From the NCBI GenBank assembly GCA_017614505.1, contig JAGABT010000001.1:515-64514 (forward strand): a stretch of DNA of 64,000 bases, in the 5' to 3' direction. Of the stretch, positions 10,760 to 35,659 are shown one piece after another (the stretch's first letter is position 1; every line of letters starts with the position of its first letter). The position numbers were made by a program, and so were the translations under genes. Source of the DNA: Selenomonadaceae bacterium (lineage in GTDB: Bacteria > Bacillota > Negativicutes > Selenomonadales > Selenomonadaceae). The notes beneath the pieces were generated by a model. That model was not told the origin of the DNA, made no database searches, and saw only the letters and a program-made list of their open reading frames with translations.

Positions 10760-10771
10760 AAAAATTCCCCC

Positions 10772-11848: not shown

Positions 11849-11851
11849 AGC

Positions 11852-12622: not shown

Positions 12623-12636
12623 GGGCAGTTCCTTCC

Positions 12637-12665
12637 TTTACGAAACGAAATTTATCTGCTATACT
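12637..12665 (+). promoter_or_regulatory. Putative sigma70-type promoter for the + strand block. It predicts a near-leaderless mRNA.
   Basis: TTTACG (12637-12642), a 17-nt spacer, then TATACT (12660-12665). The ATG at 12676 is only 10 nt downstream of the -10 box and has no SD. Confidence 0.4.
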
Positions 12666-12675
12666 TTTTGGCACT

Positions 12676-13561: not shown

Positions 13562-13589
13562 GTATATCAAACTGCAGGGAAAAATCCAA

Positions 13590-14234: not shown

Positions 14235-14736
14235 CGAGCGCGGATTTTTTACAATCGTCGGGCTTTGCCTGCTGCTGGCGGTTGCAATTTCAATTCGAGG
14301 CGTACAGGAATTTGAAGGAAATTATTCCGTCGGCGTGTCAAATTCTTTAGCCGAACACGAATTGCAGAATGCGGCTGACAGCGCGCTTATCAAAATGATT
14401 GAAACCGGCAAATACGAAAAAAGTATTATGTCTGACAGGCTCGGAAAAATTTCCATCAACATTAAAACTACGCAAAGCAACATTCGCCGATTCAGGCGCG
14501 AATATGAATCCGGCGGCAAAACCAAGGACATTGCGCTCAATGAAGATAACAGCGACGATACTGGCAAAAATGCGAGTGAACCTGACGATACGCCGGAATG
14601 GCTGAAAATTAAAGCTGACTGTCTGATAAGCATTGCCAGCTGCGAAAATAAAAAATTCGGCGGGACAATTTATCGCTGCTCACAGGCTTACATTATCAAA
14701 GGCGACGACACGGTTTATTTTCTGACGGATTTGTAA
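14206..14736 (+). CDS. Pseudopilin-like protein (non-canonical).
   Basis: ...NNERG|FFTIVGLCLLLAVAI. Candidate GTG start at 14206, in frame with the track ORF 14155. It overlaps the upstream gene. Confidence 0.4.
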   Translation: MKVLKFPANNERGFFTIVGLCLLLAVAISIRGVQEFEGNYSVGVSNSLAEHELQNAADSALIKMIETGKYEKSIMSDRLGKISINIKTTQSNIRRFRREYESGGKTKDIALNEDNSDDTGKNASEPDDTPEWLKIKADCLISIASCENKKFGGTIYRCSQAYIIKGDDTVYFLTDL

Positions 14737-14793
14737 GGCAGGAATAACGCGGCGGCTTGCCGAATTTAAAATTGCCATAAAGGAGGCGAACCT

Positions 14794-15354
14794 ATGGAAA
14801 ATGAAGAGTTCGGCGCGGCGCAAATCGACCTGAACAAACTCGTCGAGCTGATAAACGCAATTCTGGAGCAGCAGGATAAAAATTCGCGGCTCCTCAATCA
14901 AGTCCTGCGCGAAAATATCAATTTCCAAAACCAGGTGCGGCAGGGAATGTACAACGAGCTGGAAGATTTGAAAAAGCAGCAGCGCGGCGAACAGTTCACG
15001 CCGATTTTAAAATCAATCGCGGCAATTTGCGTAGAGTACCGCGCGCTCCTCAATGACGAGACCATTTCAGAAAACTCCCGCCGGTCTTTGCAGCTCATGT
15101 TCGACGAGCTTGAAGACATTCTCGGCGATTACGGCGCAGAAATTTTCAACTCGAACGCAGGAGAGCCGCGCCGCCCGCTCCTTACCAAAATCATAAGCAC
15201 GGTTTCCACCGGCGACCGCAACCAGCATAACACTATCGCTAAAAGCCGTCGCGCTGGCGTCGTTCGCAACGGGCGCCCGCTCTACCGCGAGTTCGTCGAC
15301 GTTTACGTTTTCGACGGCGATAAATCCACGTCCGAATTTGCACGCACTGAATAA
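14794..15354 (+). CDS. GrpE-like nucleotide exchange factor.
   Basis: SD AAGGAGG precedes the ATG. LRENINFQNQVRQ resembles the GrpE LRxxAexeNxRKR helix. PILKSIAAICVEYRALL and the C-terminal GVVRNGRPLYREFVDVYVF resemble the GrpE beta-domain. Confidence 0.6.
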   Translation: MENEEFGAAQIDLNKLVELINAILEQQDKNSRLLNQVLRENINFQNQVRQGMYNELEDLKKQQRGEQFTPILKSIAAICVEYRALLNDETISENSRRSLQLMFDELEDILGDYGAEIFNSNAGEPRRPLLTKIISTVSTGDRNQHNTIAKSRRAGVVRNGRPLYREFVDVYVFDGDKSTSEFARTE

Positions 15355-15387
15355 TTTACCACCGGAAAAACTGGAGGAATTTTTTTT

Positions 15388-17034
15388 ATGAGTACTTACG
15401 GCATCGACCTCGGCACAACCTATTCCTGTATCGCGCGGCTTGACTCCAACGGCAACCCCGAAGTTATCCGCAACAATGAAGACGATTCAAATATGGTTGC
15501 GTCCGTGGTTTTTTTTGAGAATGAAAACAACGTCGTCGTCGGGCAGGCGGCGAAGGAAAATATCGAGACGGACGGCGACCGCGTCGTTCAGTTCGTCAAG
15601 CGCGAAATTGGCAAGCGCGATATGCGCACCTACACTTTCGACGGCAAAACCTACACGCCCGTTGAAATTTCCGCGCTCATTCTGACGCGCCTTAAAAATC
15701 TCGTCGAATCGCAGGGCAACGAAATTGAAGATGTGGTTATCACCGTCCCCGCGTATTTCGGTCTCGAAGAGCGCTCCGCTACCAAACAGGCGGGCGAACT
15801 TGCCGGACTGCACGTCCTCAGTCTGATTAACGAGCCAACCGCTGCGGCTTTGAGCTACTGCGCGAGACAGTTTCAAGAAGACCGCACGATTTTAGTCTAC
15901 GACCTTGGCGGCGGCACTTTCGACGTTACTGTCGTCAAAATGTCCATGACGCGCAACGAAGCCGGCAAGGACGTGCAGAAAATCAACGTGCTGGCGACCG
16001 GCGGCGACGACCGGCTCGGCGGCAAGGACTGGGACGATAAACTCTTTGACCACATTCTCCACGCCTGCTGCGACGAAAACGGTCTGACGCCCGAAGATAT
16101 TGAAGCCGAAACGCGGCAGGATATTCGCTCCAAAGTCGAAGAGGCTAAGCGCAAGCTCAGTAAGAAACAGTCCGCCAAAGTCCGCATTGACGTGAACGGC
16201 TCCCGCACCGAAATTACTATCAAGCGCTCCGACTTCGAGGCTATGACTTCCGATAAAGTCGCGCAGACCATGAACTTCGTCGACTCCACGCTCCAGAAAG
16301 TTCCAGATGTCGAAATTGATACCGTGCTTTTAGTCGGCGGCTCAACCTACATGCCAATGATTCAGAACGCCGTCGAAGCAAAATTCCCGGGCAAAGTTCA
16401 GCAGCACGACCCAGACCAGGCCGTTGCTAAGGGCGCCGCGATTTACGCCAGCATGCTCGTCGTCGAGGAAAGCGGCGATACTCCCAGCGCGGACGAAACT
16501 TCCTCCGACGAAAATCCTGCCGAAAAGCCCGTTTCGCATACCGAACAGCTTACCGCTAAATTCACCGTCGAAGACCAGACGCCCCGCTCCTTCGGTCCAG
16601 GCGTCATGGATACCAAGGGCGCCAAACACCAGTACGTTTTGGAAAATTTCATCAAGATTGGCGAGAAAATGCCCGCCGTCTTTACCAAAACTTACTACCC
16701 GCTCGAAGATAATCAGGAACGCGTCCGCCTGCGCGCCTTTGAAAATATGTCGCTCGAAGATACGCTCATTCCCTGCGTCGATGAAGACGGCAACCCGCAG
16801 GCTACAGACCCCGCCAATAACGTCAAACTTTTGGGCGAACTCGTTGTAAACCTGCCGCCGGAAACTCCGCGCGATACGCCAATCAAAGTCACGTTCAAGG
16901 TTGACGCGTCCGGCGTACACGTCGAGGCCGTCAACACCCGCACCAATGAAATTTTTGAAACTTTCCTGCGCACTGAATCCGATATTGACGTGGACAACAG
17001 CGCCGTCCACCAGCTCAGAATTTCCGCTGATTAA
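15388..17034 (+). CDS. Hsp70-family ATPase, non-canonical: no helical lid and an acidic insert at the interdomain linker.
   Basis: GIDLGTTYSCIA, VITVPAYF, LINEPTAAAL, VYDLGGGTFDVTV and LVGGSTYMPMIQ motifs. The substrate-binding beta-domain ends at aa ~525 of 548. Confidence 0.9.
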   Translation: MSTYGIDLGTTYSCIARLDSNGNPEVIRNNEDDSNMVASVVFFENENNVVVGQAAKENIETDGDRVVQFVKREIGKRDMRTYTFDGKTYTPVEISALILTRLKNLVESQGNEIEDVVITVPAYFGLEERSATKQAGELAGLHVLSLINEPTAAALSYCARQFQEDRTILVYDLGGGTFDVTVVKMSMTRNEAGKDVQKINVLATGGDDRLGGKDWDDKLFDHILHACCDENGLTPEDIEAETRQDIRSKVEEAKRKLSKKQSAKVRIDVNGSRTEITIKRSDFEAMTSDKVAQTMNFVDSTLQKVPDVEIDTVLLVGGSTYMPMIQNAVEAKFPGKVQQHDPDQAVAKGAAIYASMLVVEESGDTPSADETSSDENPAEKPVSHTEQLTAKFTVEDQTPRSFGPGVMDTKGAKHQYVLENFIKIGEKMPAVFTKTYYPLEDNQERVRLRAFENMSLEDTLIPCVDEDGNPQATDPANNVKLLGELVVNLPPETPRDTPIKVTFKVDASGVHVEAVNTRTNEIFETFLRTESDIDVDNSAVHQLRISAD

Positions 17035-17043
17035 AATTTTCCT

Positions 17044-17078
17044 GCCCGCTCCGATGAAGGTCGGGGCTTTTTTTATTT
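17044..17078 (+). terminator. Possible weak intrinsic terminator or attenuator after the Hsp70 gene.
   Basis: Imperfect GC hairpin at 17044-17067 (gcccg...cggggc) followed by TTTTTTT (17068-17074). Confidence 0.4.
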
Positions 17079-17087
17079 GAATGCGTG

Positions 17088-17096
17088 TGCTATAAT
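17088..17096 (+). promoter_or_regulatory. Extended -10 promoter (TGcTATAAT).
   Basis: tgtgctataatc at 17086-17097 is the same 12-mer as at 60526-60537. Confidence 0.5.
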
Positions 17097-17113
17097 CCGC
17101 GCAGGTGATTTTT

Positions 17114-20100
17114 TTGGCGAATAAAAATATTTTTGAGATGCTGAATCTGGAGTTCGATCCGCCCGATAATTTGAAGAAAATCCGCGCGGCGTATGAGAAC
17201 TGGAAAAAGCGTCTGACTGCAGAACTTAACACTACCGTCGACCCCACGCGCCTGGGCGTTATCAAATCCGAACTGGCTATGGATAACTACATCGTCCAGA
17301 TTATCGAGAACGCCCGCCTGCGCCAGCGCGAAGCCGAAGCTCTTAAGCAAATTCGCGTTGAACAGCTGCGCCTTTATATCGACCTCCAGCGCGGCAATAC
17401 TTCCGGCACGCTCCAGGTCAACCAGTCGCAAATCAAGCACATTCGCGACAAACTCAAGCTCAGCGCCGCCACGATTGAAGCCACTTACAGGGAGCAGGGC
17501 TTTATCGTCAAGCCCGAGCGCTCGACTAAATCTATCGCCGACAAGCTCAACGGCTTTTTTATTGCCGATTCGGTTATGGAGGAACTGCGCAAGAGTTTCG
17601 CCGACTTCCAGACCGTTCCCGACGAAAAAAATTATCCGTGGTCAGCGAATGTCAGCAACCTGTACGAACTTGCCTACTACCTCGAACATCAAATCGAACC
17701 TTCGGCAGATTTTTACAAGCGCCGCGATACCGATGACCTGCGCGAAATTTTCCGCGACGAGGCTAAAAAAGTTTCCGCGCCAATTCCAGCGTGGCAGTCT
17801 ATCAAAGCTCTCCTGAACCTCGCGCAGACGCAGATTTTCAATTCCGACGATAACCGTTTCAAGTACGACCATTCGCTCAGAATCGAGCGGCTCAGCGATT
17901 TTTTTGCCAAGCTCAAATCTGCGCCAGAAATTTTCAAGCGCGATAAATATTTCGCCGACAACTGCATTAACCGTATCCGCCGCACTTTCCCGAATCTCCT
18001 AAACTACGAATTGAGCGCCGCGCTTTACAACAAGGTTGCCGGTCTTTTGAACGACCCCTACGAATCCATCAGCGACGATAACGAAAATTTTTTCTGCATG
18101 ACCTGCTCGAACTGCGGAGCCTTTGAAAATTTCCGCACGCGCGAAGAGGCTGAACGCGCGTCCTGCAAAGTTTGCGGCGAAACTTTCTACGCAGAATGTC
18201 CAAAGTGCGGCAAGAAAGTTCCCGCCAACGCCGACCACTGCCCCGCCTGCGATTTTTCTTTGAGCGAACTGCGCCGCTTCAACTATTACGTCGACCACGC
18301 CAACGTTATGCTCGACCTGCTGGATCGCAGCGCCAAATCTTTTGAAGGCAGCCTCGAGGTCGTCATGGCGGAAATTATCGACAATCTTTCCAAAGCCAAA
18401 GTCGCCAAGCCCGAATCGCCCGAACTTACCAAAATCGAATGGCGCATTCACAAAATCTCCGCCGAAAATAAAAAGCGCGAACTTATCAAGTGGGCTGAGG
18501 CTAAACTGCCTGGTCTCAACACGCACCCCGATACCGCCGTCAGCGCCTGCATGGAAATTCTCCGCCGCATTAAAGACTACCGCCCCGCCCGCGACCGCCT
18601 GCGCCTTATCAAGCCTAAAAAGCCGCTGAGCGCTGAAGCCGTCATTCATAAATCCTCCAAAAGTTCCGCGCTCCAGAATACCGGCACGGCAACCGTTCTG
18701 GGCAGAATTTCCGTCAACGCCAAATCTTCCAGCACAAGCCTCGTCGCGCCCAGCTACAATCTCACCTGTACCGTGAACTGGCAGCCAGATAACGATCTCG
18801 GCGTCGTCTACACGGTCGTACGCAAAATCGACGGCATTCCGCAGAATTACCGCGACGGCGTGGTTATCGTCGAAGGCACTGACAAAATCGAGGCGGACGA
18901 TAACGACATCAAGCCAGGCGTTTTCTACGGCTACGCGGTTTTCGCCACGCGCCTCGGCGCCATTTCCGAACCAGCCACCTGCACCGCCGTTTTCTACAGC
19001 GACATCGACGAAAACAGACTCCTTGCCAAAACCGAGGACGGGCATTGCTCCTTCACGTGGAATTTGCCTTCGGATAACTGCCTCGGCGTGCGGATTATTC
19101 GCAGCGACAAAGATGGAAATACCGTCGTCGTGGCGGATTGCACGCAGTCTCCGTTCGTTGACCGGCTCGTTAAAAACCGCAAGCAGTATCAGTATTGCCT
19201 GCAGTGCGTCTACTATTCGGCGGCGGAAGTCGTACTCAACCGCGCGAAATTCTTAGCCGAAGCCAGCAGCGAAAATTTCAACCGCGTCTGGAAAATCGAC
19301 CAGGCTTTCCGCTACAGCAAGGGCTTGACTATCACGATGACGCCCGAACTTCCTCCGCGCCAGATTAAAAATCTTGAATATAAAGTTGTCGATAACCGCG
19401 TCCGATTCAGCTGGCAGTCGACCGGCGATTTCGAGCTGCTGTTCAAGGAAATTCCCGCCGATAAAAAAATTTCCGCTGAAACCGGCAAAATTTTCGACGC
19501 CGCTAAGCTTGAAGAAATTCTGGGCGAAGGCAAAATTCTCAACCGCGCCGAGAGTTCCGACCAGTTCTGCGAATTTGAACTCACCGGCGACATAATCAAA
19601 ATCGCCGCCGTCAGCGCAACTACCCATTCCGCGCTTGTCGACGAAATTATCACAATCGCCAACGTCGAGGACTGCGAAATTGACGCCGAAAAAACTCAAA
19701 TCGTCGGCAGGGATTTGAAACTCGTGCTGAAAAATCTGCCGAAAAATATTTACATGATTCATTACCGAATCAGCACCGACGAGGACGACGAAATTTACGC
19801 AACGGTTGAGGACGCCCGCGAACGCCACATGAATCGCATTTACGCCTCCAAGTACGAGCGCGACAGCTTTATCATGCAGCCGCACCTTCCGCAGCGCGAA
19901 CTTTTTGTGACGGTTATCGGCGAGTACAAGCTCAAAGACGGCACGACGATTTATTCTGAGCCGAGTACGCTGGCTGTCAACAATCGCCCGCGCGAAGAAA
20001 TTTCCTACCGCTTCGAGTGGGGCAAGAGCGGCTTGTTCAACAAAAAAAATCTGGCGAAAAATTGCAAGCTGATTGTTGAGAGCAAGGCTGAATCTACGCC

Positions 20101-20356: not shown

Positions 20357-20365
20357 GGTGACGCT

Positions 20366-21772
20366 ATGCGAGATGCTATTAGCCAAATTCTCGAAATCAT
20401 AACGAATAATTTCCCGAATGGCATACGCGACGACTTCATCGACATGAACCGTGTCGCGAAAATTTACTCGGAGAATCACGCGGGTGAAAATATTTCGCGG
20501 GATTTTGTTGCTGACTTCATTCGTGCGAACGGGATTGAAAAAGACGGGCGTTTTTATTTCATTTTCGGCGCCGCTTCTGAAAAACTCCTGCGGTTTATCG
20601 CTGAAATTTTGGACTCCAGTTTTATCGCCTACTATTCCAAAATCTACGAGTGCCACGCTAATTTTTTCGAGAGCTTGCATATTTTCTCGCCAGAAGTTCT
20701 TAGAAAAATTCTGCAGCGGATTGATATCGACAAGGAACATTTTTATTTCTCGGATTTTTGTTCCGCAAGAAAAATGAAATGGGCTGACTACGAAGCGGCG
20801 GAGTGGCTAGAAAACGAAGTTGCAAGAATTTTCATAGCCGCGGATAAAGCTCTTGCGCTGGAAGATTTGCAGGAAAAAATTCCCTACGTGCCGGCTGAAA
20901 AAATTTCTGAAGTTCTCTCTGACGCTCAAAAATATTTTCCGACGCGCGACGGCAAATATCTTCCCAATTCCAAAATCCAGTTCGACATCGACGAAATTCG
21001 CGCGGCTAAACGCAAAATAATCGCCAGCATAAACGCGAACGGTTGCGCTTCCACCGAGGAGTTCAGTTTAGCGTCTAACTTCGCACTCAATCCCGAACTT
21101 AGCGAAAAAGATTTGCGCCGCCTGATTTACGGCAGATTTTTCTCCGACTTAACCATACGCGGCAAAAAATTCTACAGGCAAGGCGCCGCCACTTCCACCA
21201 GCCAGACTAAAACTCTGCGCGAATTTATCGCCGGTCAAAATGAACTGACTGCCAACAAACTTTTTGCCTTCGCTGAAAGTATTGGCGCCGCCGTACATGT
21301 TACGTTATCCGTCGCCTACGAAACGATGGTTCGCGTCGATAAAAATCTTTTCGTTAAAGACGCGATGATAAAATTCGACGTTGCCGCTATCGACGAGGCG
21401 CTGGCTCCGTTCGTGCAGAAGAAAATTATTTCGCTGCAGTCCGTCACGAGTTTTACCGGCTTCCCGCCCGTCGAAGGCTATTCCTGGAATTTGTTCCTGC
21501 TCGAAAGTTTTCTGCGCAAGTTCAGCGAAAAGTACGTTTACGTCAAGCCCGCCACCAACAGCTCGAATCTCGGTGCAATTCACCCCAGCGCGATGAAATT
21601 TAAAGACTATCTCGACGTTCAGGCGGCGGTTATCCTTCAGGAAAATGTGCCGCTAGAAAAATCTGCCGTCGATGAGTTTCTGATGAATCACGGCTTCAGG
21701 GGCAAGCGCAGGGATAAAGTTATCGCGCGAATTATCGCCAGAGCTCAAGAATTTATTGAGGAAAGTTTCTAA
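20366..21772 (+). CDS. Hypothetical 468-aa protein, translationally coupled to brxP.
   Basis: SD GAGGTGA precedes the ATG. The stop overlaps the brxP start (TAATG at 21770-21774). I recognise no motif. Confidence 0.75.
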   Translation: MRDAISQILEIITNNFPNGIRDDFIDMNRVAKIYSENHAGENISRDFVADFIRANGIEKDGRFYFIFGAASEKLLRFIAEILDSSFIAYYSKIYECHANFFESLHIFSPEVLRKILQRIDIDKEHFYFSDFCSARKMKWADYEAAEWLENEVARIFIAADKALALEDLQEKIPYVPAEKISEVLSDAQKYFPTRDGKYLPNSKIQFDIDEIRAAKRKIIASINANGCASTEEFSLASNFALNPELSEKDLRRLIYGRFFSDLTIRGKKFYRQGAATSTSQTKTLREFIAGQNELTANKLFAFAESIGAAVHVTLSVAYETMVRVDKNLFVKDAMIKFDVAAIDEALAPFVQKKIISLQSVTSFTGFPPVEGYSWNLFLLESFLRKFSEKYVYVKPATNSSNLGAIHPSAMKFKDYLDVQAAVILQENVPLEKSAVDEFLMNHGFRGKRRDKVIARIIARAQEFIEESF

Positions 21773-24048: not shown

Positions 24049-27000
24049 CGGCGTTGGCTTACGAGGCAGATAAATATTTTGACTTCTTCGAGATAGACGA
24101 GGGCTTTTATCCGGAAATTAACGAGAGTTCCATTAAGGACGCGAAAAATCGCTGGCAGAACACTTTCCCGCACGCAGATATTATAGAGCTGCTGAAAATT
24201 ACTGAGCGGGCGCTGTCGCGTGCGAGCAACACCAGCAATAGAAGTTTATGGCTGGACGGCTCCTACGGTACCGGCAAATCGCGAATACTCTGGATGATGC
24301 AAAATCTTTTGTCCTGCCCCGAAACAGAGTTCGACGCCTACTTCGACGAGTACGACAACCTGCGCAGGGAAATTGACCTGCGCGAACGGCTCCGCACAAT
24401 CCGGCGCGGTAAAGTCATCACAGCGCTCCGCTACAGCACCGGCTCCATCACTTCGTCGCAGAAATTAATTTTCGCCGTCTTTGAAAGCCTCACCGCCGCG
24501 CTCAAAAGTTCCGGCTGCAAATTCGACGGCGCTAAAACCCTGTGCGGCAAAATCGCCAACTGGCTCGAAGCCGACGACGCTAACCGCGAGCTTTTCCGCG
24601 CCAAAATTAAGAAACGCGAATACATAATGTCCGGCAGCCTCCGAAACAGAAGCGTCGAAGAAATTATCGAACGCCTCAAAAATCCCAGCGCCAAAGTTTC
24701 TTATTTGGTCGAAGATATTCTCAAACTCGGCGAGCGCGAAGGGATTATCGCCTTCAAAATCGACATGAAGGATTTGACCGAATGGATTGCCGAAGTCATC
24801 GCCGAAAATAATCTGCAGGCGATTGTTTTGTTTTGGGACGAATTTTCCAAGTTCTTCGCCAATAACCGCAACAATCTCGACGAACTCCAGCGGCTGGCGG
24901 AACTTTCCAACATTGCGCCCTTTTATTTGTTCATCGCCACGCACCAGATTGAGGAACTGCCAGGCGCCGGTGAACAGGGTTTCAAAGTCGTCAGCGACAG
25001 ATTCATGACAAAGACAATTACCATGCCCGACAATATTGCCTTTGAACTTATCGGGCACGCGCTGAAAGTCAAGCCCGACGCTCAAAATACGTGGACTCAC
25101 ATTTCCGCCGCGCTCAGAGAACGTACCGCCGAGCCGCGAAAAGCTGTTATGAAATTTGATAAACTCCACAACGAAAAAATTTTGACTGACCTTTTGCCGA
25201 TTCACCCAATGACCGCAATTCTGCTGAAAAATCTCTCGGTATACTTCGCCTCCAATCAGCGGAGCATTTTCAATTTCATAAAGAACACCGACCCGAAAGT
25301 TAAGGCATTCCAGGATTTTATCAATACGAAAAGCCCGCTCAACGGCGATTTGCTGACGATTGATTATCTGTGGAATTTTTTTTATGAGAGCGGCACAGAC
25401 GAACACGGCGGTAGCGTCGGGCGTATGAATTTGCGTCCGTCAATCCGCGCGATTCTCGATTCCTATGCGCTCAACGAAAATAATCTCAGCGCCGACGAAA
25501 AAATTGTTTTGAAGGCGCTTCTTCTGTTTCAGGCAATTAACCAGGAGTCTCACGGTGTCATTGAACTTTTCCACCCCACTGAAAAAAATCTTGAACTGGC
25601 ATTTACCGGCGTCGCTGACATGGAAAACGGGCGCGCCGTCGCTATCGCAAACAATCTCGTCCGCAAAGATATTTTGTTCAAAAAGCCAGGCAAAATTGAA
25701 ACTTTCGCGGTTATGGCACTCGGCAGCGACTTCGCTGAAATCGAACGCCTCAAAAAAGACATTGCTGATAGAGTGCGAACTGCCGCGCTGCTCGAAGGCG
25801 CTGAACTAATCAAAGCTATGGAACTTGAACTTTCGCAGGCGCAGAAAGCCCGCTACGTTTTAGTTCCCGTTACCGCCGACAATTTCACGCTGACGATAAA
25901 CCGCCTCACCAACGAAGTCGAAACTTACCAAATCAAAGTCATCGTTTGCATTGCCCGCAACGAGGACGAACAGCATAAAATTCACAATCTGCTAAGCGGC
26001 GCGCTGAGTAATGAGCGCTACGACGGCTTAGTTTTTATCGACGCGTCGTCCAATACGATGAGTCAGGACATTTTCACGCGCTGGGTAGAAAATTCCGCCA
26101 GCGAACAGTACTGGCGCGGCAAGGACAACGCGCTCGCCGATAAGATGAAGGATAACGCCGTCGACTGCCTTAAGGAATGGAAAGGGTCTTTTGCAAAGGG
26201 TTCCTTCGTCTACTACCACGCCACGAAAACCGGCGACCGCGAAAAAATTTCCTGCCAGAATTTTGACGGCGTTAAGATGGAGATCACAGCAAACGTCCGC
26301 CGCCTTTACCCTTACTCCTTCGACGACGCTGATATTACCGCCACGCTTTTTCAGGTTACGAGTTTTAAAAATTTCGCTAAGGCGGGCGCCGAGCAAACCG
26401 AATATCAAATGCTCAAGCTCAAGGATATTAAAACCGTTTTGGGCGACGTCTGGCAGATGTCCCAAAATTACTGGGAAGTTTATCCGACCTTGAGTATTTC
26501 GCGGCTGAAAATCGAACTGGACGCGCTGATTAAATCTGAAATTGAAAGTGACGTCCGCATTTCCTTCGACGATATTTTCAGCTTCCTGCTCGAACGCGGG
26601 TTCATGCCGGTGAACATTTACGCGTTTCTGACGGGCTTTCTGCTGAAGGAATACGCCGGCGACCCCTACAGATTCAGCGCGGGGCTCGACGGGAATTTTG
26701 GCGGCGCGATGAATTCCGGCAAGCTGGCGGAATATGTTGCCGAGAGCATTAAGCAGGCGCAAAGCCAGTCGAAGAATTACCGCCCGAAATACCTTGAAAT
26801 TATGTCGCAGAATCAGCGGCAGTTCATGGAATTTGCGTCCAAAATTTTCGACGTGCAGGAAGATATTTCGGTGGAACAGAGCGCGCAGAAACTTCGGCTC
26901 AAGCTGATAAATCTCGGCTGCCCGATTTGGTGCTACGTCGACGCGGCGCCGGATAAGTACAAGGATTTTCTGCGGCTGCTGGCGGAAATTGCCAATTCCA

Positions 27001-28244
27001 AAGAGGCAATCAGCGTTTCGGCACTGGCTGAGCGCGCCGGACAGTTTCTGATGAATAATCCCGTGGCGTTCTACGACATGAAAAATTTCCTGACCGCGCA
27101 GAATGGTCGCGAAATTTTTACCGACTTCCTGAGCGGTTTCGACGGCGGGACGATTATCGAACTGGCGCAGGAAATTGGCGTCGAAAATACCGTGGCGGAA
27201 TGCCAGCGGCGCATTACTGCCGGCGACAGCATTTGGCTCCACGATAAGGAAACTGCCGAGGGTGAACTGCGCAAATTAATCGTCGACTACAAAATTATTC
27301 TAGCGAGCCGGAATTTCGGCAGGGACGGCAAATCGTTCAGCGCCTGCGTTCAAAGCTGGCAGAGTTTGTGCCGGTACAGTTTGAAAATCCCTGCCGACGT
27401 GCTTGGCGACTACTACCCGCCGCTGAAAAGTTTCTTCGCGATGCTAAAGGAACTTACGGAACGCGGCGAAATTCCTCAGAGCAAGCGGGAAAATTTTTTG
27501 AGCCAGCTTACCGACAACGCCGAGCAAATCCAAGACGCAATTTATGAGCCGCTGAAAGTCCTGCGCGAAAAATATTCCTACCAGCTCGGCGGCTTGAACG
27601 AGGAAGAAATACAATCGCTGTACAGCAACCTGCCGAATAATTCGTTCACCGATTCGCAGGGGCATTACCACAAAAATGTTGCGGATTCTGCGAAAAAAAT
27701 GCAGAGCGCTCAGCTTCGGATCAAACTTTTGAATTTGTGGTTTGAACTCACGCAAAGCAAGTCGCCACGCGAATGGTCGAACGCTCATCGCACGCCGATT
27801 CTGGCAATGGTTCCAGATTCGGAGCGACAAAACGCGCGGAAAATTTTTGAAACTGTCATGGCGACTTCGCCGGAGGAAAAAGATGTTCGCGCCGCTATCG
27901 AGTACTTTGAACAGCGTCCGAAATTTCTAAGCGCGCTCAATGACGCTCGGAAAATCGAGGAGGCGTTCAGCGTGGTGGTTATCGGCGAGTACCGCAGTTT
28001 TCTGAAGGACAACGACGAAATTCGCGATGAGCTTGAGCGGAAGTTTTCCCGCGAAGCCTATGATTGGCACAATGCTACGGAACTCGTGAAAAATTTCGCT
28101 GAAAATAAATATTACACGGGCAGCGCGCACGATAAGGTTACGGAACGGGTTGAGCGGATGTCCGCCGAATCCGCGAAGAAACTGCTGGTTGAGTTGGTGG
28201 ACAAAGATTTTGAAGTCGGCTTGAAAATTTTGAAGGAGTCCTGA
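24045..28244 (+). CDS. brxC: BREX BrxC/PglY large P-loop ATPase.
   Basis: 1399 aa. Walker A is GSYGTGKS and Walker B-like is IVLFWDEF. It sits between brxP and pglZ. The start is TTG 24045 (overlapping the brxP stop) or TTG 24054. Confidence 0.78.
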   Translation: MTALAYEADKYFDFFEIDEGFYPEINESSIKDAKNRWQNTFPHADIIELLKITERALSRASNTSNRSLWLDGSYGTGKSRILWMMQNLLSCPETEFDAYFDEYDNLRREIDLRERLRTIRRGKVITALRYSTGSITSSQKLIFAVFESLTAALKSSGCKFDGAKTLCGKIANWLEADDANRELFRAKIKKREYIMSGSLRNRSVEEIIERLKNPSAKVSYLVEDILKLGEREGIIAFKIDMKDLTEWIAEVIAENNLQAIVLFWDEFSKFFANNRNNLDELQRLAELSNIAPFYLFIATHQIEELPGAGEQGFKVVSDRFMTKTITMPDNIAFELIGHALKVKPDAQNTWTHISAALRERTAEPRKAVMKFDKLHNEKILTDLLPIHPMTAILLKNLSVYFASNQRSIFNFIKNTDPKVKAFQDFINTKSPLNGDLLTIDYLWNFFYESGTDEHGGSVGRMNLRPSIRAILDSYALNENNLSADEKIVLKALLLFQAINQESHGVIELFHPTEKNLELAFTGVADMENGRAVAIANNLVRKDILFKKPGKIETFAVMALGSDFAEIERLKKDIADRVRTAALLEGAELIKAMELELSQAQKARYVLVPVTADNFTLTINRLTNEVETYQIKVIVCIARNEDEQHKIHNLLSGALSNERYDGLVFIDASSNTMSQDIFTRWVENSASEQYWRGKDNALADKMKDNAVDCLKEWKGSFAKGSFVYYHATKTGDREKISCQNFDGVKMEITANVRRLYPYSFDDADITATLFQVTSFKNFAKAGAEQTEYQMLKLKDIKTVLGDVWQMSQNYWEVYPTLSISRLKIELDALIKSEIESDVRISFDDIFSFLLERGFMPVNIYAFLTGFLLKEYAGDPYRFSAGLDGNFGGAMNSGKLAEYVAESIKQAQSQSKNYRPKYLEIMSQNQRQFMEFASKIFDVQEDISVEQSAQKLRLKLINLGCPIWCYVDAAPDKYKDFLRLLAEIANSKEAISVSALAERAGQFLMNNPVAFYDMKNFLTAQNGREIFTDFLSGFDGGTIIELAQEIGVENTVAECQRRITAGDSIWLHDKETAEGELRKLIVDYKIILASRNFGRDGKSFSACVQSWQSLCRYSLKIPADVLGDYYPPLKSFFAMLKELTERGEIPQSKRENFLSQLTDNAEQIQDAIYEPLKVLREKYSYQLGGLNEEEIQSLYSNLPNNSFTDSQGHYHKNVADSAKKMQSAQLRIKLLNLWFELTQSKSPREWSNAHRTPILAMVPDSERQNARKIFETVMATSPEEKDVRAAIEYFEQRPKFLSALNDARKIEEAFSVVVIGEYRSFLKDNDEIRDELERKFSREAYDWHNATELVKNFAENKYYTGSAHDKVTERVERMSAESAKKLLVELVDKDFEVGLKILKES

Positions 28245-28246
28245 GC

Positions 28247-30148
28247 GTGGAAACTTTGAGCGTTGCCGCCGCCACAGAAAAAATTCGAGCTTACCTGAAA
28301 CGTGATATTCCTCGCCCGTACTTCGTGATTTCTGACGGCGCCGATGAATGTGCGGAATTTCAAAAAATTTTCAGCGGAACTCTCGCGCAGATTTACATTT
28401 CGGACTTTTGCGCGGGCGATTCGCCGCTTGATAATGATTTACTCGTCGAGAGACTGGACGCGTTGGAACGCGACACGATTTGTTTCGGTCTTGGCGGGTA
28501 TATTTATTTTACCGCGCAGGAAGATATTTTGCGGGAACTGCAGGACAGGAATTTCAAGCGGAAAGTGATTTTTATTTGCAGCGGCGTTGCGAATTTGCTT
28601 GAGCGGCTCGCTGAGGAAGATTCAAAATTCCGCGCGAATCAGATTTGCCGCGTTGCTGGCAGTGGCAGTTTTTCCGTCGTGAGTTACAGCGCGAATTTGA
28701 ACGTTCCAACCGACGCTAAAAATTTTTCTGCACTGCTTAAGCTGGCGGAGAGCGGCAGTCGTTCGATAACTGTGCAGACGGATTTGCCGCTGGAAAATGT
28801 TCGCGAGATAACCAGTTTCTACGACGCGATTAAATTTCGTGAGCCTGATTTCAGCGCGCCGCCAGACGCTTTAAGTGCTCAGCAGTGTCAGGAATATTTT
28901 TCAGACGATAACTGCACAGGCTACCCGCCGGAACATTGGCGGAGTTTCGCGGCTGGCTTCAAGGGCAAAATCCTCAACCGTTACTTGAAATTCGTCTTTG
29001 AGCATTCGGCGGGCTACGAAGATTATTTGCGGAATTTGTTCTTCGCGCTGTTCGACGCTGACGATAAAAATTTTGCGGAATTTTACGCGCTGAGGAAAGC
29101 CGCCGTCAAAAATATTTCGTCGCCGTATCTTTCCGAGTACGTCGCGCGGGTGGAAAAATCCGCCACCGATGCCGTAAAATTTCTGACGGATAACACCGCC
29201 GCCGAACGCCGCGCTATGATTCGAGCAGTGCAGGGTAAGGAAAAAATTCCGGCGGCTCTGGAGAAAAATTATCCCGCGCTGGCTGATTATCTGGCGGACT
29301 TCGACTACGGCGACGAGGAACTCACAGAATATTTTCGGCGGTACAGGAAAATCAAGCTGCTTAACGTCGACGACGAAAATTTCAAGCGGCGCGTCAGGGA
29401 ACTGGCGCTCAATCGACCGTTTAACAGGTTCGAGACGCGGCAGAAACTTTTGGAACGCGCTGGCGGGAACGCTAAACTTTACTGGCTGGACGCGCTGGGC
29501 GCAGAGTTTTGCGGGTACATTCAGGCGCGGGCGGTTCAGTTCGGACTTCACGCGGAAATTGAAATTGCCCGTGCGGATTTGCCGACGCTGACTTCGCAGA
29601 ATAAATATTTCTACGACGATTGGCGCGGCGCTAAGTTCGACAAGAACCAGCAGCTGGACGAGCTGAAACATTCGCCAGAAAAATTCGACGCCGACGGAAA
29701 ATGCTCTGCGCCGACCTACCTTGATGCGGAACTCGAAATTATCGGTAAAGTTATCGAGGAAATAAAAAATGCGCTGGCAGTTGGCGACGCCGATAAAATT
29801 ATTTTGACTTCCGACCACGGCGCCAGTCGGCTCGCGGTTATGTACGGGCGCGAAAATAAGTTCAGAATGAACTCCGTCGGCGAACATTCTGGGCGCTGCT
29901 GCCCTATAAACTACCTCGACGCCAGACCTGACTGCGCCAGCGAAGAAAATGGCTACTGGGTGCTGGCGAACTACGACAGATTCAGCGGCGGGCGTCTTAG
30001 CTCGGTCGAAGTACACGGCGGCGCGACGCTCGAAGAAATTTTGGTGCCGGTAGTTGAATTTTCACTGCAGGGCGCTGAAACTTCGCAGGCGGAGAAAATT
30101 CCTGCGCCGCTTGAAAATCTTGACGAGGGCTTTGACTTTTTTGAATGA
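28247..30148 (+). CDS. pglZ: PglZ alkaline-phosphatase-superfamily protein.
   Basis: ILTSDHGASRL motif near the C-terminus. The GTG start is 2 nt after the brxC stop, with SD GAAGGAG. Confidence 0.82.
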   Translation: METLSVAAATEKIRAYLKRDIPRPYFVISDGADECAEFQKIFSGTLAQIYISDFCAGDSPLDNDLLVERLDALERDTICFGLGGYIYFTAQEDILRELQDRNFKRKVIFICSGVANLLERLAEEDSKFRANQICRVAGSGSFSVVSYSANLNVPTDAKNFSALLKLAESGSRSITVQTDLPLENVREITSFYDAIKFREPDFSAPPDALSAQQCQEYFSDDNCTGYPPEHWRSFAAGFKGKILNRYLKFVFEHSAGYEDYLRNLFFALFDADDKNFAEFYALRKAAVKNISSPYLSEYVARVEKSATDAVKFLTDNTAAERRAMIRAVQGKEKIPAALEKNYPALADYLADFDYGDEELTEYFRRYRKIKLLNVDDENFKRRVRELALNRPFNRFETRQKLLERAGGNAKLYWLDALGAEFCGYIQARAVQFGLHAEIEIARADLPTLTSQNKYFYDDWRGAKFDKNQQLDELKHSPEKFDADGKCSAPTYLDAELEIIGKVIEEIKNALAVGDADKIILTSDHGASRLAVMYGRENKFRMNSVGEHSGRCCPINYLDARPDCASEENGYWVLANYDRFSGGRLSSVEVHGGATLEEILVPVVEFSLQGAETSQAEKIPAPLENLDEGFDFFE

Positions 30149-30160
30149 CGGGAGACAGCG

Positions 30161-31600
30161 ATGGAACAGCGACTGAGAAAAATTTTTTCCGACATGATAG
30201 TTTACAAGGATTTGAAGAACAGCAACTTTTTTTCCGCGCTGAGTCTGCCGTCGTTTATGCGTGACTGGCTGCTGAGGCGCTTCGAGGACACCGACGGCAA
30301 ATTCGATACCGACGAACTTTCAGATTTCGTGCGGCGCTTCATTCCCAAAAAAGACGAATGGAAGGCGATTAAAAGCCGAATCGTTATGGATAACGAGCGC
30401 GTCAAACTGCTGGCGAAAATTTCAATCGAAATTGACGTAGCGAGCGGCGCGGCGTCATTTTCCCTGCCGGATTTCGGACTTTCCGCCAGCGAAACGATGA
30501 TTGACGAAAGTATCTGGCAGCTCTACAAGGACGAACTAGTCAACGGCAGCGAGGTCTGGGGCATGATTGAGCTCGGTTACCGCCCGCCCGATTACGATAC
30601 GCGCGCGAAGGTTACCGGCAAAATCCGTCTGCTCAAGTTCAAAAATTTCTGCCCCTACAAAATCAATCTCGATTTCTACAAGGACGCGCGGAAAAATTTT
30701 TCGTTCGAGGAATGGCTGGAAATTCTCCTTGGCGCGATGGACTACAATGCGGCGGGCTACACTCGCGAAGAAGAAAAATTAACAATGTTGACCCGTCTTT
30801 TGCCCTTCGTCGAGAAACGTTTGAATCTTATCGAACTGGCACCGAAAGGTACCGGCAAATCCTACGTTTTCGGGCGCGTCAGTCGCTTCGGCTGGCTCTC
30901 CAGCGGCGGCGTCATGAGTCGCGCCAAAATGTTCTACGATATGCAGAAACGTCAGGAAGGACTCGTCGCCTATAACGATTTCGTGACGCTCGACGAGGTG
31001 CAGACGATTTCTTTCAGGGACACCGACGAAATGCGCGGCGCCTTGAAGGGCTATCTGGAAAACGGCGTCTACACCGTCGGCAACCACTCCAACAACGCCG
31101 AGGCGGGCGTCATTCTTTGCGGCAACATTTCGAAAAGCGTCATGGATATGGACGGCGCCGAAAATATGTTCGACGAACTTCCGCCGGTCTTCCACGAATC
31201 CGCGCTGATTGAACGCTTTCACGGCTTCATCAAGGGCTGGAACATTCCGCGCATGAATGACGATATGAAAATTTGCGGCTGGGCGCTCAACTGCGAATAT
31301 TTCTGCTCGATTCTGCACGAACTACGCGAGGATATCAGCTACCGCGCTATCGTCGACCAGCTTGTTAAGGTGCCGGAAAAAGCTGACACGCGCGATACCG
31401 CCGCTGTCAAGCGCATTGCGACGGCGTATTTGAAACTGCTTTTCCCCGACGTTCGCCGCGTTGAAGATGTCGACAGGGAAAAATTTCAGCGCCACTGCCT
31501 TGAGCGTGCCTGTCAAATGCGGGCGACGATTCGGCACCAGCTCGCTCTGCTAGACGTTGAGTACGCCGGCAAGGAAATTCCGAAGTTCGAGGTAATTTGA
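30161..31600 (+). CDS. brxL: BrxL-like AAA ATPase (short ~470-aa form; no obvious Lon protease domain).
   Basis: Walker A is LAPKGTGKSYVF and Walker B is FVTLDEVQ. It sits immediately after pglZ. Confidence 0.68.
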   Translation: MEQRLRKIFSDMIVYKDLKNSNFFSALSLPSFMRDWLLRRFEDTDGKFDTDELSDFVRRFIPKKDEWKAIKSRIVMDNERVKLLAKISIEIDVASGAASFSLPDFGLSASETMIDESIWQLYKDELVNGSEVWGMIELGYRPPDYDTRAKVTGKIRLLKFKNFCPYKINLDFYKDARKNFSFEEWLEILLGAMDYNAAGYTREEEKLTMLTRLLPFVEKRLNLIELAPKGTGKSYVFGRVSRFGWLSSGGVMSRAKMFYDMQKRQEGLVAYNDFVTLDEVQTISFRDTDEMRGALKGYLENGVYTVGNHSNNAEAGVILCGNISKSVMDMDGAENMFDELPPVFHESALIERFHGFIKGWNIPRMNDDMKICGWALNCEYFCSILHELREDISYRAIVDQLVKVPEKADTRDTAAVKRIATAYLKLLFPDVRRVEDVDREKFQRHCLERACQMRATIRHQLALLDVEYAGKEIPKFEVI

Positions 31601-31807
31601 TTGGCTAAGAAAATTTTCAGCTGCATTGCCTGCGGGAAAAGCCCGCTGACGAAGAATGAAGTCGGTATAACGAAAAAGCTTTTGGGCGCGAAGTCCAGAA
31701 ATTTTTATTGCATAGATTGTCTGGCGGATTTTCTGGAGGTCGAGCCGCAGGATATTCTTGACAAGATTGAGGAATTTAAAAATGACGGTTGCAGGCTCTT
31801 CGAGTAA
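31601..31807 (+). CDS. Small zinc-ribbon protein (68 aa).
   Basis: The TTG start abuts the brxL stop. There are two CxxC pairs (CIACG ... CIDCL). Only a non-ATG start is available, so confidence is moderate. Confidence 0.45.
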   Translation: MAKKIFSCIACGKSPLTKNEVGITKKLLGAKSRNFYCIDCLADFLEVEPQDILDKIEEFKNDGCRLFE

Positions 31808-32933
31808 AATAATTTACGCGGACAACGCGGCGACGACGCCACTTGACGCGGACGCGCTGGCGTTGATGATTGAACTTCAGAAAAATTTTTTTGCAAATCC
31901 TTCGGCGGCGTACAATCTTTCGCGCCCACTGAAAAAAGTTCTGCAGGAGTCGCGGGAAAAAATTGCCGCGTGCATTAACGCTGAGCCGTACGAAATTTTT
32001 TTCACGTCGGGAGGCTCCGAGAGCGATAACTGGGCGATAAAATCTGTCGCGCTGGAAAATTTGAGCGAGCGTCCAGACATAGTTACTTCCGGCATTGAGC
32101 ACAAGGCGATTCTAAATTCCTGCGCGGCGATGAAAAATTTGGGCTGCACCGTGACGAAAGTGCCAGTCGATTACACCGGCACAGTCAGTCCCGCCGCTCT
32201 GAGGACGAAAATTTCACGGCGCACAAAAATTGTTTCCGTCATGCTGGCGAATAACGAAGTCGGAACGATTCAGCCAGTTAAATTGCTCGCGGAAATTGCG
32301 CACGACAAGAGAAAAATTTTCCACACGGATGCGGTACAGGCAGTCGGACACATTCCGATTGACGTAGAATTTCTGGGGGTGGATATGCTGTCAGCTTCGG
32401 CGCACAAGTTCAACGGACCAAAAGGCGTCGGCTTCCTGTACGTTCGCGAAGGACTGGAAATTTTGCCGTATATTGACGGCGGCGGGCAGGAATTTTCTAA
32501 GCGCGCTGGGACGGAAAACGTTCCGGCCATTGCGGCGATGGCTCTGGCTCTCGAAAAAAATTGCCGCGCAATGCGGAAGACTGCCGCAAAACTTTCTGCC
32601 TGCACGAAAACTCTGATTGACTGCCTCAGGAACAGCGGCGCGGATTTTATCGTGAATGGTGACGAAAATCGTTTGCCTGGGCATTTGAGTTTGTCTTTCA
32701 GAAACTGCGACGGCGAAACTTTAATGCACCGGCTCGACTTGAAAAATATCTGCGTGTCGACGGGTTCTGCGTGCAATTCGCGGCGGACGGAAATTTCTCA
32801 CGTGCTGAAGGCGATGAAAGTTCCGCGCGAGTACGTTCGCGGGACGATTCGCGTAACTTTCGGCAGGAACAATTCCGTCAGCGAGGCGGAAACTATCGGT
32901 AGAAGTTTGTCGGAAATATTTTCTGAGAAATAA
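31782..32933 (+). CDS. Class V aminotransferase / cysteine desulfurase (NifS/IscS/DndA-like).
   Basis: IYADNAATTP, the PLP-lysine motif SAHKFNGPKG, and the active-site STGSACNS. ATG 31782 has SD GAGGAA. It overlaps the small ORF by 26 nt. Confidence 0.85.
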   Translation: MTVAGSSSKIIYADNAATTPLDADALALMIELQKNFFANPSAAYNLSRPLKKVLQESREKIAACINAEPYEIFFTSGGSESDNWAIKSVALENLSERPDIVTSGIEHKAILNSCAAMKNLGCTVTKVPVDYTGTVSPAALRTKISRRTKIVSVMLANNEVGTIQPVKLLAEIAHDKRKIFHTDAVQAVGHIPIDVEFLGVDMLSASAHKFNGPKGVGFLYVREGLEILPYIDGGGQEFSKRAGTENVPAIAAMALALEKNCRAMRKTAAKLSACTKTLIDCLRNSGADFIVNGDENRLPGHLSLSFRNCDGETLMHRLDLKNICVSTGSACNSRRTEISHVLKAMKVPREYVRGTIRVTFGRNNSVSEAETIGRSLSEIFSEK

Positions 32934-32971
32934 AAAAAGCGCCGGTATCGATTTTGACACCGGCGTTTTTT
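32932..32971. terminator. Bidirectional intrinsic terminator.
   Basis: A7 run, a 7-bp GC stem (32940-32946 / 32959-32965), then T6 (32966-32971). It lies between the convergent desulfurase and sdhB genes. Confidence 0.75.
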
Positions 32972-33837: not shown

Positions 33838-33850
33838 AGCGAATCACTCC

Positions 33851-35647: not shown

Positions 35648-35659
35648 TTCAGTCCCACC

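Follow-up and report, generated by a model that had tools for sequence, protein, structure and literature searches.

A BREX type 4 cassette with a winged-helix partner, probably inserted behind an Hsp70-linked gene in one narrow Selenomonadaceae lineage

Bacteriophage exclusion (BREX) type 4 was reportedly described, by Goldfarb in 2015, as the gene set brxP-brxC-pglZ-brxL. The locus considered here, a block of ten genes in a 64,000-nucleotide stretch of DNA from a Selenomonadaceae bacterium (assembly GCA_017614505.1, contig JAGABT010000001.1, positions 515 to 64,514 of the forward strand; hereafter 'the window', whose own numbering is used throughout), carries such a set directly behind three genes of a chaperone type. 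Studies of other BREX type 4 (BREX-4) systems have demonstrated that they make phosphorothioate DNA, and that brxP and brxC, together with a cysteine desulfurase, are sufficient for that modification (PMC12914056); a cysteine desulfurase and a small Zn-finger protein were further found in 56% of 457 BREX-4 taxa, and put forward as a sixth core component (PMC12839542, sect. 34). The chaperone-type genes have their own closest described counterpart in the predicted GAP1-N2-type DO-GTPase conflict systems, one theme of which, in Firmicutes and Actinobacteria, comprises HSP70, GrpE and a fibronectin type III (FNIII) protein fused to DnaJ (Kaur 2020, PMC7159879). The analysis described below indicates that the two groups of genes are very probably independent modules, joined by an insertion in one narrow lineage of Selenomonadaceae.

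The ten genes, designated g1 to g10, all lie on the + strand and are tightly packed. The first three (module A) encode a GrpE-like protein, an Hsp70 paralog and a giant J-like protein, and the remaining seven comprise a tandem winged-helix protein (g4), the four BREX-4 core genes (g5 to g8), a small Zn-finger protein (g9) and a cysteine desulfurase (g10). An earlier reading of the window, made from its letters alone (the sequence-only reading), had described ten co-directional and nearly gapless genes, and the list of open reading frames (ORFs) reproduces all ten, along with each of the spacings that it gave: 33 nt between g1 and g2, 9 nt between g3 and g4, a TAATG overlap, a 4-nt overlap, 2 nt, 12 nt and 0 nt at the successive junctions from g4 to g9, and an overlap of g9 with g10. 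Its account of the domain content likewise agrees with hidden Markov model (HMM) scans of Pfam, NCBIfam and PADLOC.

Positions 20357-32938 (12.6 kb), which hold the BREX-4 cassette, read as an insertion between the stop codon of g3 and a terminator shared with frdB, because sites of the type found at two related loci (L066 and L067 in our numbering) lack the cassette, carry the terminator hairpin behind g3 and show no BREX remnants by tblastn. In L067, whose g3 is 71% identical to that of the window, a near-identical hairpin (GCCGGTATCGAAATTGACGCCGGCG) comes immediately after the g3 stop codon, and convergent frdB-frdA-frdC genes, in an order assigned from Pfam domains and lengths, come next; the junction reads ...CCCAAGAAATAA AAAGACGCCGGTATCGAAATTGACGCCGGCG ATATTTTTT... 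and runs into the end of frdB, with the stop codon abutting the hairpin. In the window, the counterpart of that hairpin (GCGCCGGTATCGATTTTGACACCGGCG) closes the ten-gene block, and the right flank of the site is formed by frdB-frdA-frdC (fumarate reductase / succinate dehydrogenase by Pfam; 33091-36280, - strand). A near-identical hairpin also lies directly 3' of g3 in L066, which has a frdB-type Fe-S gene, and in L068, and no BREX remnants were detected by tblastn at the L066, L067 or L068 sites. The sequence-only reading had placed its only convincing terminator at 32932-32971, and the hairpin at 32939-32965 is indeed a real, strong and bidirectional intrinsic terminator (-21.0 and -20.8 kcal/mol on the two strands, z about -5.5); ancestrally, it would have stood right after the g3 stop codon, shared with the convergent frdB.

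Additional relatives illustrate what else may occupy the same position. In L066 (g3 84% and Hsp70 94% identical), an 84-aa ORF lies alone in the slot (L066:7604-7858), between the g3 stop codon and the terminator, and the site therefore accepts different cargo. Synteny with the window holds on either side of the slot in locus L053, with pilin-like ORFs and g1-g3 to the left and frdB, frdA and frdC (95, 97 and 80% identical) to the right, and the g3-frdB slot of L053 holds genes for a DeoR regulator, an aldolase, a transketolase, RpiB and PGM. At L068:6200-6454 the g3/frdB terminator unit (hairpin, T-run and spacer, about 75 nt) is tandemly repeated at least four times directly after g3, in what looks like a local amplification of that unit. 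With respect to the agent of insertion, no integrase, transposase or insertion sequence was found among the ten genes or at their intergenic junctions; the ends of the cassette share a weak AGAAAT(G/A)A similarity as the sole sign of a target-site duplication, and g10 homologs differ in their C-termini. The possibility that the hairpin is a dispersed targeting element, similar to repetitive extragenic palindromes, was rejected, as it is present in a single copy in the window and otherwise only after g3 in relatives.

The junction of g3 with BREX is found only in the window and in L005, and is thereby confined to the shallowest clade, in which g3 is at least 90% identical; relatives at 84%, 77%, 71% and 69% are without BREX. 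That distribution bears upon an opposite history, in which the ten-gene arrangement is ancestral, the relatives lost BREX by deletion, and L066 and L067 represent the resulting scars. Such a history might account for the small ORF in the L066 slot, and for a junction shared by the window and L005 even though their g4 proteins are only 71% identical; but it is improbable in view of the restriction of the junction to a single clade, the lack of BREX remnants at the three sites searched, the abutment of stop codon and hairpin in L067 with zero spare sequence, and the fact that, in most other species compared, BREX-4 lies at another site. Insertion therefore continues to be preferred here over deletion: a BREX-4 cassette would have landed precisely between the g3 stop codon and its terminator, producing a case of transcriptional hitch-hiking, and not a functional Hsp70-BREX machine.

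Surveys of gene neighbourhoods, conducted from both sides of the junction, address the same question in a broader set of genomes. A g4 profile searched against one genome per GTDB species yielded 31 loci, upon which the ten window proteins were mapped by tblastn. Among the 22 of these loci with at least 3.3 kb of upstream sequence, g3 was found directly upstream of g4 in one (L005, the closest relative of the window, with g1-g3 90-97% identical) and not in the other 21. Conversely, none of the 16 other g3 loci with downstream sequence carries g4 or BREX. The sequence-only reading had asked whether homologs of its 468-aa (g4) and 1080-aa (g3) proteins co-occur with BREX genes, which is the case for the former (linked to BREX-4 in 30 of 30 loci) and not for the latter (0 of 16 other loci). 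The genes upstream of BREX-4 differ in most of the 24 loci compared, recurring only in a few pairs or trios, and the context of module A also varies between genomes, with CodY, pilin-like ORFs or rubredoxin upstream. Individual metagenome-assembled genomes (MAGs) can hold both sets apart: in GCA_017518905.1 the trio lies beside codY, with g4, a DUF4007-only gene, brxC and pglZ elsewhere, in a defence island, and the locus tags of the two sets are likewise far apart in the MAGs IKI08 and IK062, where the positions are unlinked.

These surveys bear directly on the principal claim of the sequence-only reading, namely that a dedicated Hsp70 cycle is wired to the BREX core. According to that model the ten genes would constitute one system, in which the cycle of GrpE, Hsp70 and J-like protein serves BREX-4 as sensor, assembly factor or regulator, and several features are compatible with it: the tight co-directional packing, the 9-nt spacer between g3 and g4 and the single strong terminator at the end; the same arrangement in L005; and the occurrence of BREX-4 near a divergent g3 in L028. 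Set against those features are the restriction of direct adjacency to the window and its closest relative, the absence of g3 directly upstream in 21 of 22 BREX-4 loci and of BREX from 16 of 16 other g3 loci, the ability of a single MAG to hold both sets unlinked, the empty sites that indicate a clean insertion, and an internal terminator that parts g1-g2 from g3. A functional composite is accordingly already largely refuted by the neighbourhood survey, and must be considered highly unlikely; the lack of linkage to BREX that the sequence-only reading had itself named as counting against its model is what the homologs of g1-g3 display. What the evidence favours is the fallback of that reading, namely independent neighbouring modules.

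Transcription signals within the block provide a second view of its organization. The gap between g2 and g3, described previously as containing a weak hairpin and an extended -10 box, does contain both. The hairpin, which is followed by a run of seven T residues (17048-17074, + strand; 8-bp GC-rich stem at 17048-17067) and is also kept in L005 and L068, is a respectable intrinsic terminator at -13.4 kcal/mol and does not merit the term 'weak'. The extended -10 promoter box TGTGCTATAAT (17086-17096, + strand) is conserved upstream of g3 in L005, L067, L068, L053 and L036, and is succeeded by an AGGTGA ribosome-binding site and by a TTG start at 17114, the start that database homologs of g3 use and that yields a protein of 1080 aa. 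Because a terminator and a promoter box sit between g2 and g3, the block is better read as a pair of transcription units (g1-g2 and g3-g10) than as a single operon, and the promoter of g3 would by inference also serve g4-g10. The conservation of the box in L067 occurs although g3 there is without an Hsp70 neighbour: at L067:9705-13219, g3 stands alone behind its extended -10, with rubredoxin and lactate dehydrogenase genes upstream and no adjacent GrpE or Hsp70 gene, and g3 therefore need not adjoin the gene of its presumed Hsp70 partner.

At the other end of g3, the g4 start lies 9 nt after the g3 stop codon in the window (9-13 nt in the window and L005 together), such that the ribosome-binding site of g4 overlaps the stop codon; at other loci, g4 is preceded by an intergenic region of its own with -10-like boxes. 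A simple scan returned no sigma-70-like site between the TGTGCTATAAT box and g4. Since the cassette sits between the g3 stop codon and its terminator, without a scanned site before g4, BREX-4 is probably transcribed here from the promoter of g3.

The first gene of the cassette, g4 (20366-21772, + strand, 468 aa), belongs, by all appearances, to a large family of winged-helix proteins linked to BREX-4. No Pfam, NCBIfam or significant PADLOC match was obtained for it, and searches of PDB sequences with g3 and g4 returned nothing useful. Its AF2 model (pLDDT 77) is a string of winged-helix units, and the best Foldseek matches are to multi-winged-helix arrays (UFL1, SelB WH1-4, Dcc1 and ESCRT-II). 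At all 30 loci with sequence beyond g4, the gene adjoins BREX-4 genes: it is usually followed by brxP within about 10-160 nt, with a DUF4007-only gene next in L003 and L019, brxC next in L016 and L023, and the BREX operon convergent to g4 in L020 and L021. Three of the g4 loci, at 26-29% identity, belong to Lachnospiraceae, Prevotellaceae and Cloacimonadota.

An exhaustive g4 profile search of 1.84 billion representatives extended the family to 1,332 clusters at 50% identity, 778 of them at E<=1e-30; a word-indexed profile search to which distant homologs had been added contributed little (225 versus 219 matches), so that the breadth of the family came from the exhaustive search. Many of these relatives are proteins of 570-1,550 aa in which the entire g4 module is C-terminal, and the N-terminal extensions that were sampled include ankyrin repeats, HARE-HTH, the C-terminal domain of the RNA polymerase alpha subunit and sigma-70 region 4. 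Genes for four distant members were checked, and each is immediately followed by a PAPS-reductase gene (BrxP), with the full brxP-brxC-pglZ-brxL set confirmed by HMM at two of them. Among the cassette genes g4 is also the fastest to evolve, at 45-59% identity to the window versus 55-89% for the others at loci other than L005. Its rapid evolution and its variable, sensor-like fusions point to a role in tuning recognition or regulation; g4 is most likely a nucleic-acid-binding or scaffolding subunit, which, as the usual first product of the cassette, would bind nucleic acid or hold the complex together while setting target recognition or regulation. No g4-like component is named in the main texts of the two BREX-4 papers (PMC12839542 and PMC12914056) or in those supplements that were consulted, and the g4-BREX-4 family, absent from PADLOC, Pfam, NCBIfam and that portion of the literature, is the part of the locus that looks new.

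The remainder of the cassette corresponds closely to described systems. The product of g5 (brxP; 21772-24048, + strand, 758 aa), the predicted sulfur-inserting enzyme, matches PADLOC BrxP at 1.5e-237 over residues 1-754, a second BrxP model (the DUF4007 part) over residues 507-750, and Pfam PAPS_reduct (5.2e-28) and Fer4. The SspC-like ATPase encoded by g6 (brxC; 24045-28244, + strand, 1399 aa) matches PADLOC BrxC over its full length at 6e-226, along with cross-matches to SspC. A PglZ phosphatase of the BREX-4 type is encoded by g7 (28247-30148, + strand, 633 aa; NCBIfam NF033445 BREX_PglZ_4 at 6.9e-96 and 322 bits against a cutoff of 140, PADLOC PglZ at 1.6e-87), and a short form of BrxL, with an N-terminal domain and ATPase but no Lon protease domain, by g8 (30161-31600, + strand, 479 aa; TIGR02688 at 429 bits against a cutoff of 329, Pfam BrxL_N, and BrxL_ATPase at 2e-113). 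These scores, and the canonical order of the genes, confirm the earlier recognition of brxP, brxC, pglZ and brxL as a BREX type 4 set. Directly after brxL, g9 (31601-31807, + strand, 68 aa) encodes a Cys-rich Zn-finger protein that most cassettes carry, at 68-92% identity, immediately behind brxL or pglZ, and that is conserved beside the desulfurase in those that extend that far. The desulfurase gene, g10 (31758/31782-32933, + strand, 391 aa from the first start, with the true start probably near 31782), matches PADLOC SspA (4.5e-122) and DndA (1e-121) and Pfam Aminotran_5 (8e-74). The accompanying claim that the other six genes belong to no named defence system does not survive this comparison, as g9 and g10 are published BREX-4 partners (PMC12839542) and g4 is linked to BREX-4 in every evaluable locus; the combination of BREX-4 with desulfurase and Zn-finger is itself already known.

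By analogy with other BREX-4 systems, the g10 desulfurase would take sulfur from cysteine and donate it as a persulfide, and BrxP with the BrxC ATPase would place it in the DNA backbone as a phosphorothioate at short motifs (as demonstrated for other BREX-4 systems, PMC12914056); PglZ and BrxL would then exclude unmodified phage DNA, with g9 as a putative small Zn-finger partner. The cassette is probably self-contained and, as its differing upstream neighbours indicate, horizontally mobile.

Other cassettes recovered in the survey display additional variation. The PAPS-reductase domain is lost from BREX-4-like cassettes in L003, L019, L016 and L023 (around 10001-18200), with a 257-aa DUF4007-only gene remaining in L003 and L019 and brxC directly after g4 in L016 and L023, and several BREX-4-like cassettes are without brxL; those lacking PAPS-reductase or brxL may be decaying systems, or variants that use trans-acting enzymes. 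In L022 (15410-16483) an inverted segment of about 1.07 kb, covering the end of pglZ and half of brxL (the first half), runs opposite to its orientation in every other cassette; its interpretation as a phase-variation switch was rejected for want of convincing flanking inverted repeats, and the inversion may reflect a misassembled MAG. The archaeal Methanosphaera plasmid pNP174 (L074; NZ_CP118754.1, 87598-107922) carries a full BREX-4 set, preceded by genes for an HTH regulator and an ImmA/IrrE peptidase and followed by a DUF262 gene.

Module A begins with g1 (14794-15354, + strand, 186 aa), a GrpE-like nucleotide-exchange factor that matches Pfam GrpE (PF01025; 3.8e-08, 33.6 bits against a cutoff of 25.8), and whose homologs in relatives are 64-94% identical and adjoin the Hsp70 gene; a PADLOC match of g1 to BrxA (E 2e-4, no stretch passing) resembles coiled-coil noise and was rejected. 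The Hsp70 paralog g2 (15388-17034, + strand, 548 aa), which is 85-97% identical across relatives, consists of a nucleotide-binding domain (Pfam HSP70, 2.5e-87, residues 5-359) with catalytic motifs that appear intact by eye, a long acidic linker and a substrate-binding beta-domain. Its last 160 aa returned 28 matches from the PDB, exclusively to Hsp70 substrate-binding beta-domains (best E 0.004), and its C-terminus lies some 15 aa beyond that domain; because this portion corresponds to the beta-domain alone, and the protein stops right after it, the label 'lidless' is a fair one. A partial PADLOC match of g2 to PDC-M61B (2.2e-9) was taken as a distant match to an Hsp70-type ATPase, and not as membership.

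The largest protein of the module, g3 (17105/17114-20356, + strand; 1083 aa from a GTG start or 1080 aa from TTG), is laid out as a J-like N-terminus, a helical region, a double Zn-ribbon (approximately residues 331-380) and four to five tandem FNIII domains. A weak match to DZR is the sole Pfam family found; the AF2 model (pLDDT 79) displays an N-terminal helical bundle, the helical region, Zn-ribbons and FNIII array, and the C-terminal half was matched by Foldseek to tandem fibronectin-III arrays (E 7e-11). Pfam DnaJ gave no match to g3 even at E 10, and an hhalign comparison of its N-terminus with eight J domains was in register and weak (P 5.8e-4, probability 29%); the HPD motif is absent, and the loop between helices II and III reads NTTVDP, which is conserved within the family. 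The chaperone-type assignments made previously (GrpE-like, lidless Hsp70, J-like/Zn-ribbon/FN3 giant) hold, and the combination of HSP70 with GrpE and DnaJ-FNIII has a precedent in an already described theme (PMC7159879). Homologs of g3 form 155 clusters; those listed are 45-100% identical over about their full length, and all with a named source are labelled Selenomonadaceae or Quinella. Module A is a cluster of many Selenomonadaceae, with or without adjoining BREX.

When 20 g3 loci were compared by ORF clustering, nine were found to have two further genes after g3: the first encodes a protein of about 384 aa that combines two Zn-ribbons at its N-terminus with a P-loop GTPase (GVSGAGKS, DGAGE, TKID), and the second a signal-peptide protein of about 197 aa. 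Both genes are missing after g3 in the window, L005, L053, L066, L067 and a few others, and no homologs of either were detected elsewhere in the 64-kb window (by tblastn for the GTPase). Pfam scans of the cluster genes gave no GAP1-type match and the cluster holds no candidate ORF, though a distant version might lie within the helical region of g3. Module A is a reduced variant of the published HSP70-GrpE-DnaJ/FNIII theme, here without the GTPase. Mechanistically, the FNIII array of g3 might bind a target or partner, which the J-like N-terminus would pass to the lidless Hsp70, with GrpE resetting the ATPase; in relatives the DO-GTPase would probably act as the switch, its gene being missing from the cluster in this clade. 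There is about an even chance that the module is a conflict system.

The surroundings of module A vary between relatives. Between the Hsp70 gene and g3, where the window has a short gap of 70-80 nt, relatives carry varying cargo (L001:9269-9982, L044:7667-8653 and L053:8131-9792), which includes a fused MNT and HEPN-like (NTase_sub_bind) gene, a fragment containing the target-recognition domain and C-terminus of an MmeI-type IIG enzyme (PADLOC 3.9e-96), and acyltransferase_3 with DUF1269. In a divergent clade of g3 (47-48% identity; L028:1-2080 and L048:523-2170), genes of the SIR2 family and with a Macro domain lie directly upstream, replacing GrpE and Hsp70. Directly upstream of g1 in the window (12676-14736) are four small co-directional ORFs with prepilin-like N-termini (for example RG/LAALEVVIV and RG/FVLAEFAIAL), for which no Pfam match was obtained; L005 and L053 keep them in synteny with the trio, four small ORFs occupy that place in L066, and L001 lacks them.

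Some of these features are consistent with module A being a lineage-specific set of cellular chaperones, for example for the assembly of a surface or pilus-like structure, in which case BREX would have landed beside a housekeeping cluster. Hsp70 proteins that remain 85-97% identical across species in which g3 is only 59-90% identical, the position of the cluster among core genes (trpC, glycerate kinase, frd and fumarase), the synteny with the prepilin-like ORFs in the clade of the window, and g3 homologs that are numerous, high-scoring and, where named, all from Selenomonadaceae or Quinella would each fit such a role. That interpretation is possible yet doubtful: the domain set fits a published predicted conflict theme to which relatives add a DO-GTPase-like gene, the slots around g3 carry MNT/HEPN, a fragment of a type IIG restriction-modification enzyme, SIR2 with Macro, and BREX-4 in relatives, the upstream context of the cluster changes between genomes, and the pilin-like ORFs are without Pfam support.

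While the joining of two independent modules by insertion remains the favoured account, several observations weigh against it and should be considered together. In L028, a g3 homolog of 47% identity lies 1.1 kb upstream of BREX-4, and chance proximity of that kind is expected, by rough estimate, in about 1-3% of cases; rplM, rpsI and a terminator intervene, on which grounds the locus was rejected as a second independent fusion of g3 to BREX. The g3-g4 junction of the window is very tight, with its 9-nt spacing, overlapping ribosome-binding site and lack of a scanned promoter, and g3 and g4 are probably co-transcribed in this lineage, which is compatible with an acquired regulatory coupling. 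Defence-like cargo (MNT/HEPN, the MmeI fragment, SIR2 with Macro) is common near module A in relatives, and the region may be a defence hotspot, with selection favouring co-location. The only non-Zn Pfam matches of the relatives' GTPase, to DO-GTPase1/2, are sub-threshold (E 0.06). Finally, the BREX-4 of the Methanosphaera plasmid, found via BrxP, has no g4-like gene, which rules out g4 as universal in BREX-4. A history that would accommodate the first of these points is one in which BREX-4 was captured into the g3 transcription unit and an Hsp70 module, predicted to sense invaders and to have lost its GTPase, came to gate the expression or activity of BREX, with the proximity in L028 reflecting selection. 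Such a capture would amount to a newly evolved two-layer defence, and is regarded here as very unlikely.

The rest of the window consists of housekeeping genes (NAD synthase, an epimerase, glycerate kinase, trpC, frdCAB, fumarase, cstA, mfd, ileS and a GGDEF/EAL protein), and the window corresponds neither to a mobile element nor to a defence island of the classical kind. Among those genes is a minus-strand ORF of 424 aa (8252-9526) with an N-terminal NYN (RNase-like) domain.

If the two modules were joined by insertion, then the 'chaperone-wired BREX' represents a juxtaposition produced by a single event, and a false lead is removed. In its place, a 468-aa orphan is assigned to BREX-4, as a member of a family found upstream of brxP in Firmicutes, Bacteroidota, Cloacimonadota and others. 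Were g4 to set target recognition or regulation, it would bear upon what determines the phosphorothioate target motif, a question raised in the same 2026 Nat Commun paper in which brxC genes of other species failed to restore modification. A clean insertion into the 3' end of another gene is a second, modest point of interest, and the same chromosomal slot, with BREX in the window and L005 and without it in L066 and L067, provides a natural experiment, with near-isogenic contexts for studies of BREX-4 function and read-through. The reduced Hsp70-GrpE-J/FNIII cluster of rumen Selenomonadaceae, without an adjoining GTPase gene, bears in turn on how the predicted DO-GTPase systems work.

Placed beside described systems, module A shares with the DnaK-DnaJ-GrpE cycle an ATPase, an exchange factor of the GrpE family and a partner protein whose helical N-terminus is J-like, but departs from its canonical form in two components: g2 is without the alpha-helical lid and its linker is long and acidic, and g3 lacks the HPD motif and a DnaJ Pfam match, with Zn-ribbons and FNIII domains replacing the client-binding domains of DnaJ. 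Its resemblance to the HSP70-GrpE theme of the DO-GTPase/GAP1-N2 systems (PMC7159879), which is itself a predicted system, extends to the Hsp70 and GrpE genes, the FNIII-repeat protein with Zn-ribbons and, by a weak alignment, a DnaJ-like N-terminus, the Firmicutes-type lineage, and the GTPase with two Zn-ribbons and a Walker-B glutamate that follows g3 in nine relatives; the window and its clade differ in having no DO-GTPase or recognizable GAP1 and a J-like domain without HPD, and the Hsp70 of the window, lacking only the lid, keeps its substrate-binding beta-domain. On the other side of the junction, the cassette has counterparts in the Ssp and Dnd systems (SspABCD, DndABCDE), in that g10 resembles SspA/DndA, the N-terminus of BrxP resembles SspD/DndC, its C-terminus resembles SspB (DUF4007), and BrxC resembles SspC; it differs in that PglZ and BrxL stand in for the restriction side provided by SspE, SspFGH or DndFGH, and in that DndB, DndD and DndE are absent. 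The correspondence with BREX type 4 itself comprises four core genes in canonical order and above curated cutoffs, a BrxP that is a fusion of PAPS-reductase, Fe-S and DUF4007 parts, and a DndA/SspA-like desulfurase and small Zn-finger after brxL, as in 56% of BREX-4 taxa (PMC12839542). From that system the cassette of the window is distinguished by its opening gene, the additional tandem winged-helix g4 of 468 aa, and by its situation, as it lacks its own promoter region and occupies the 3' untranslated end of a gene to which it is unrelated.

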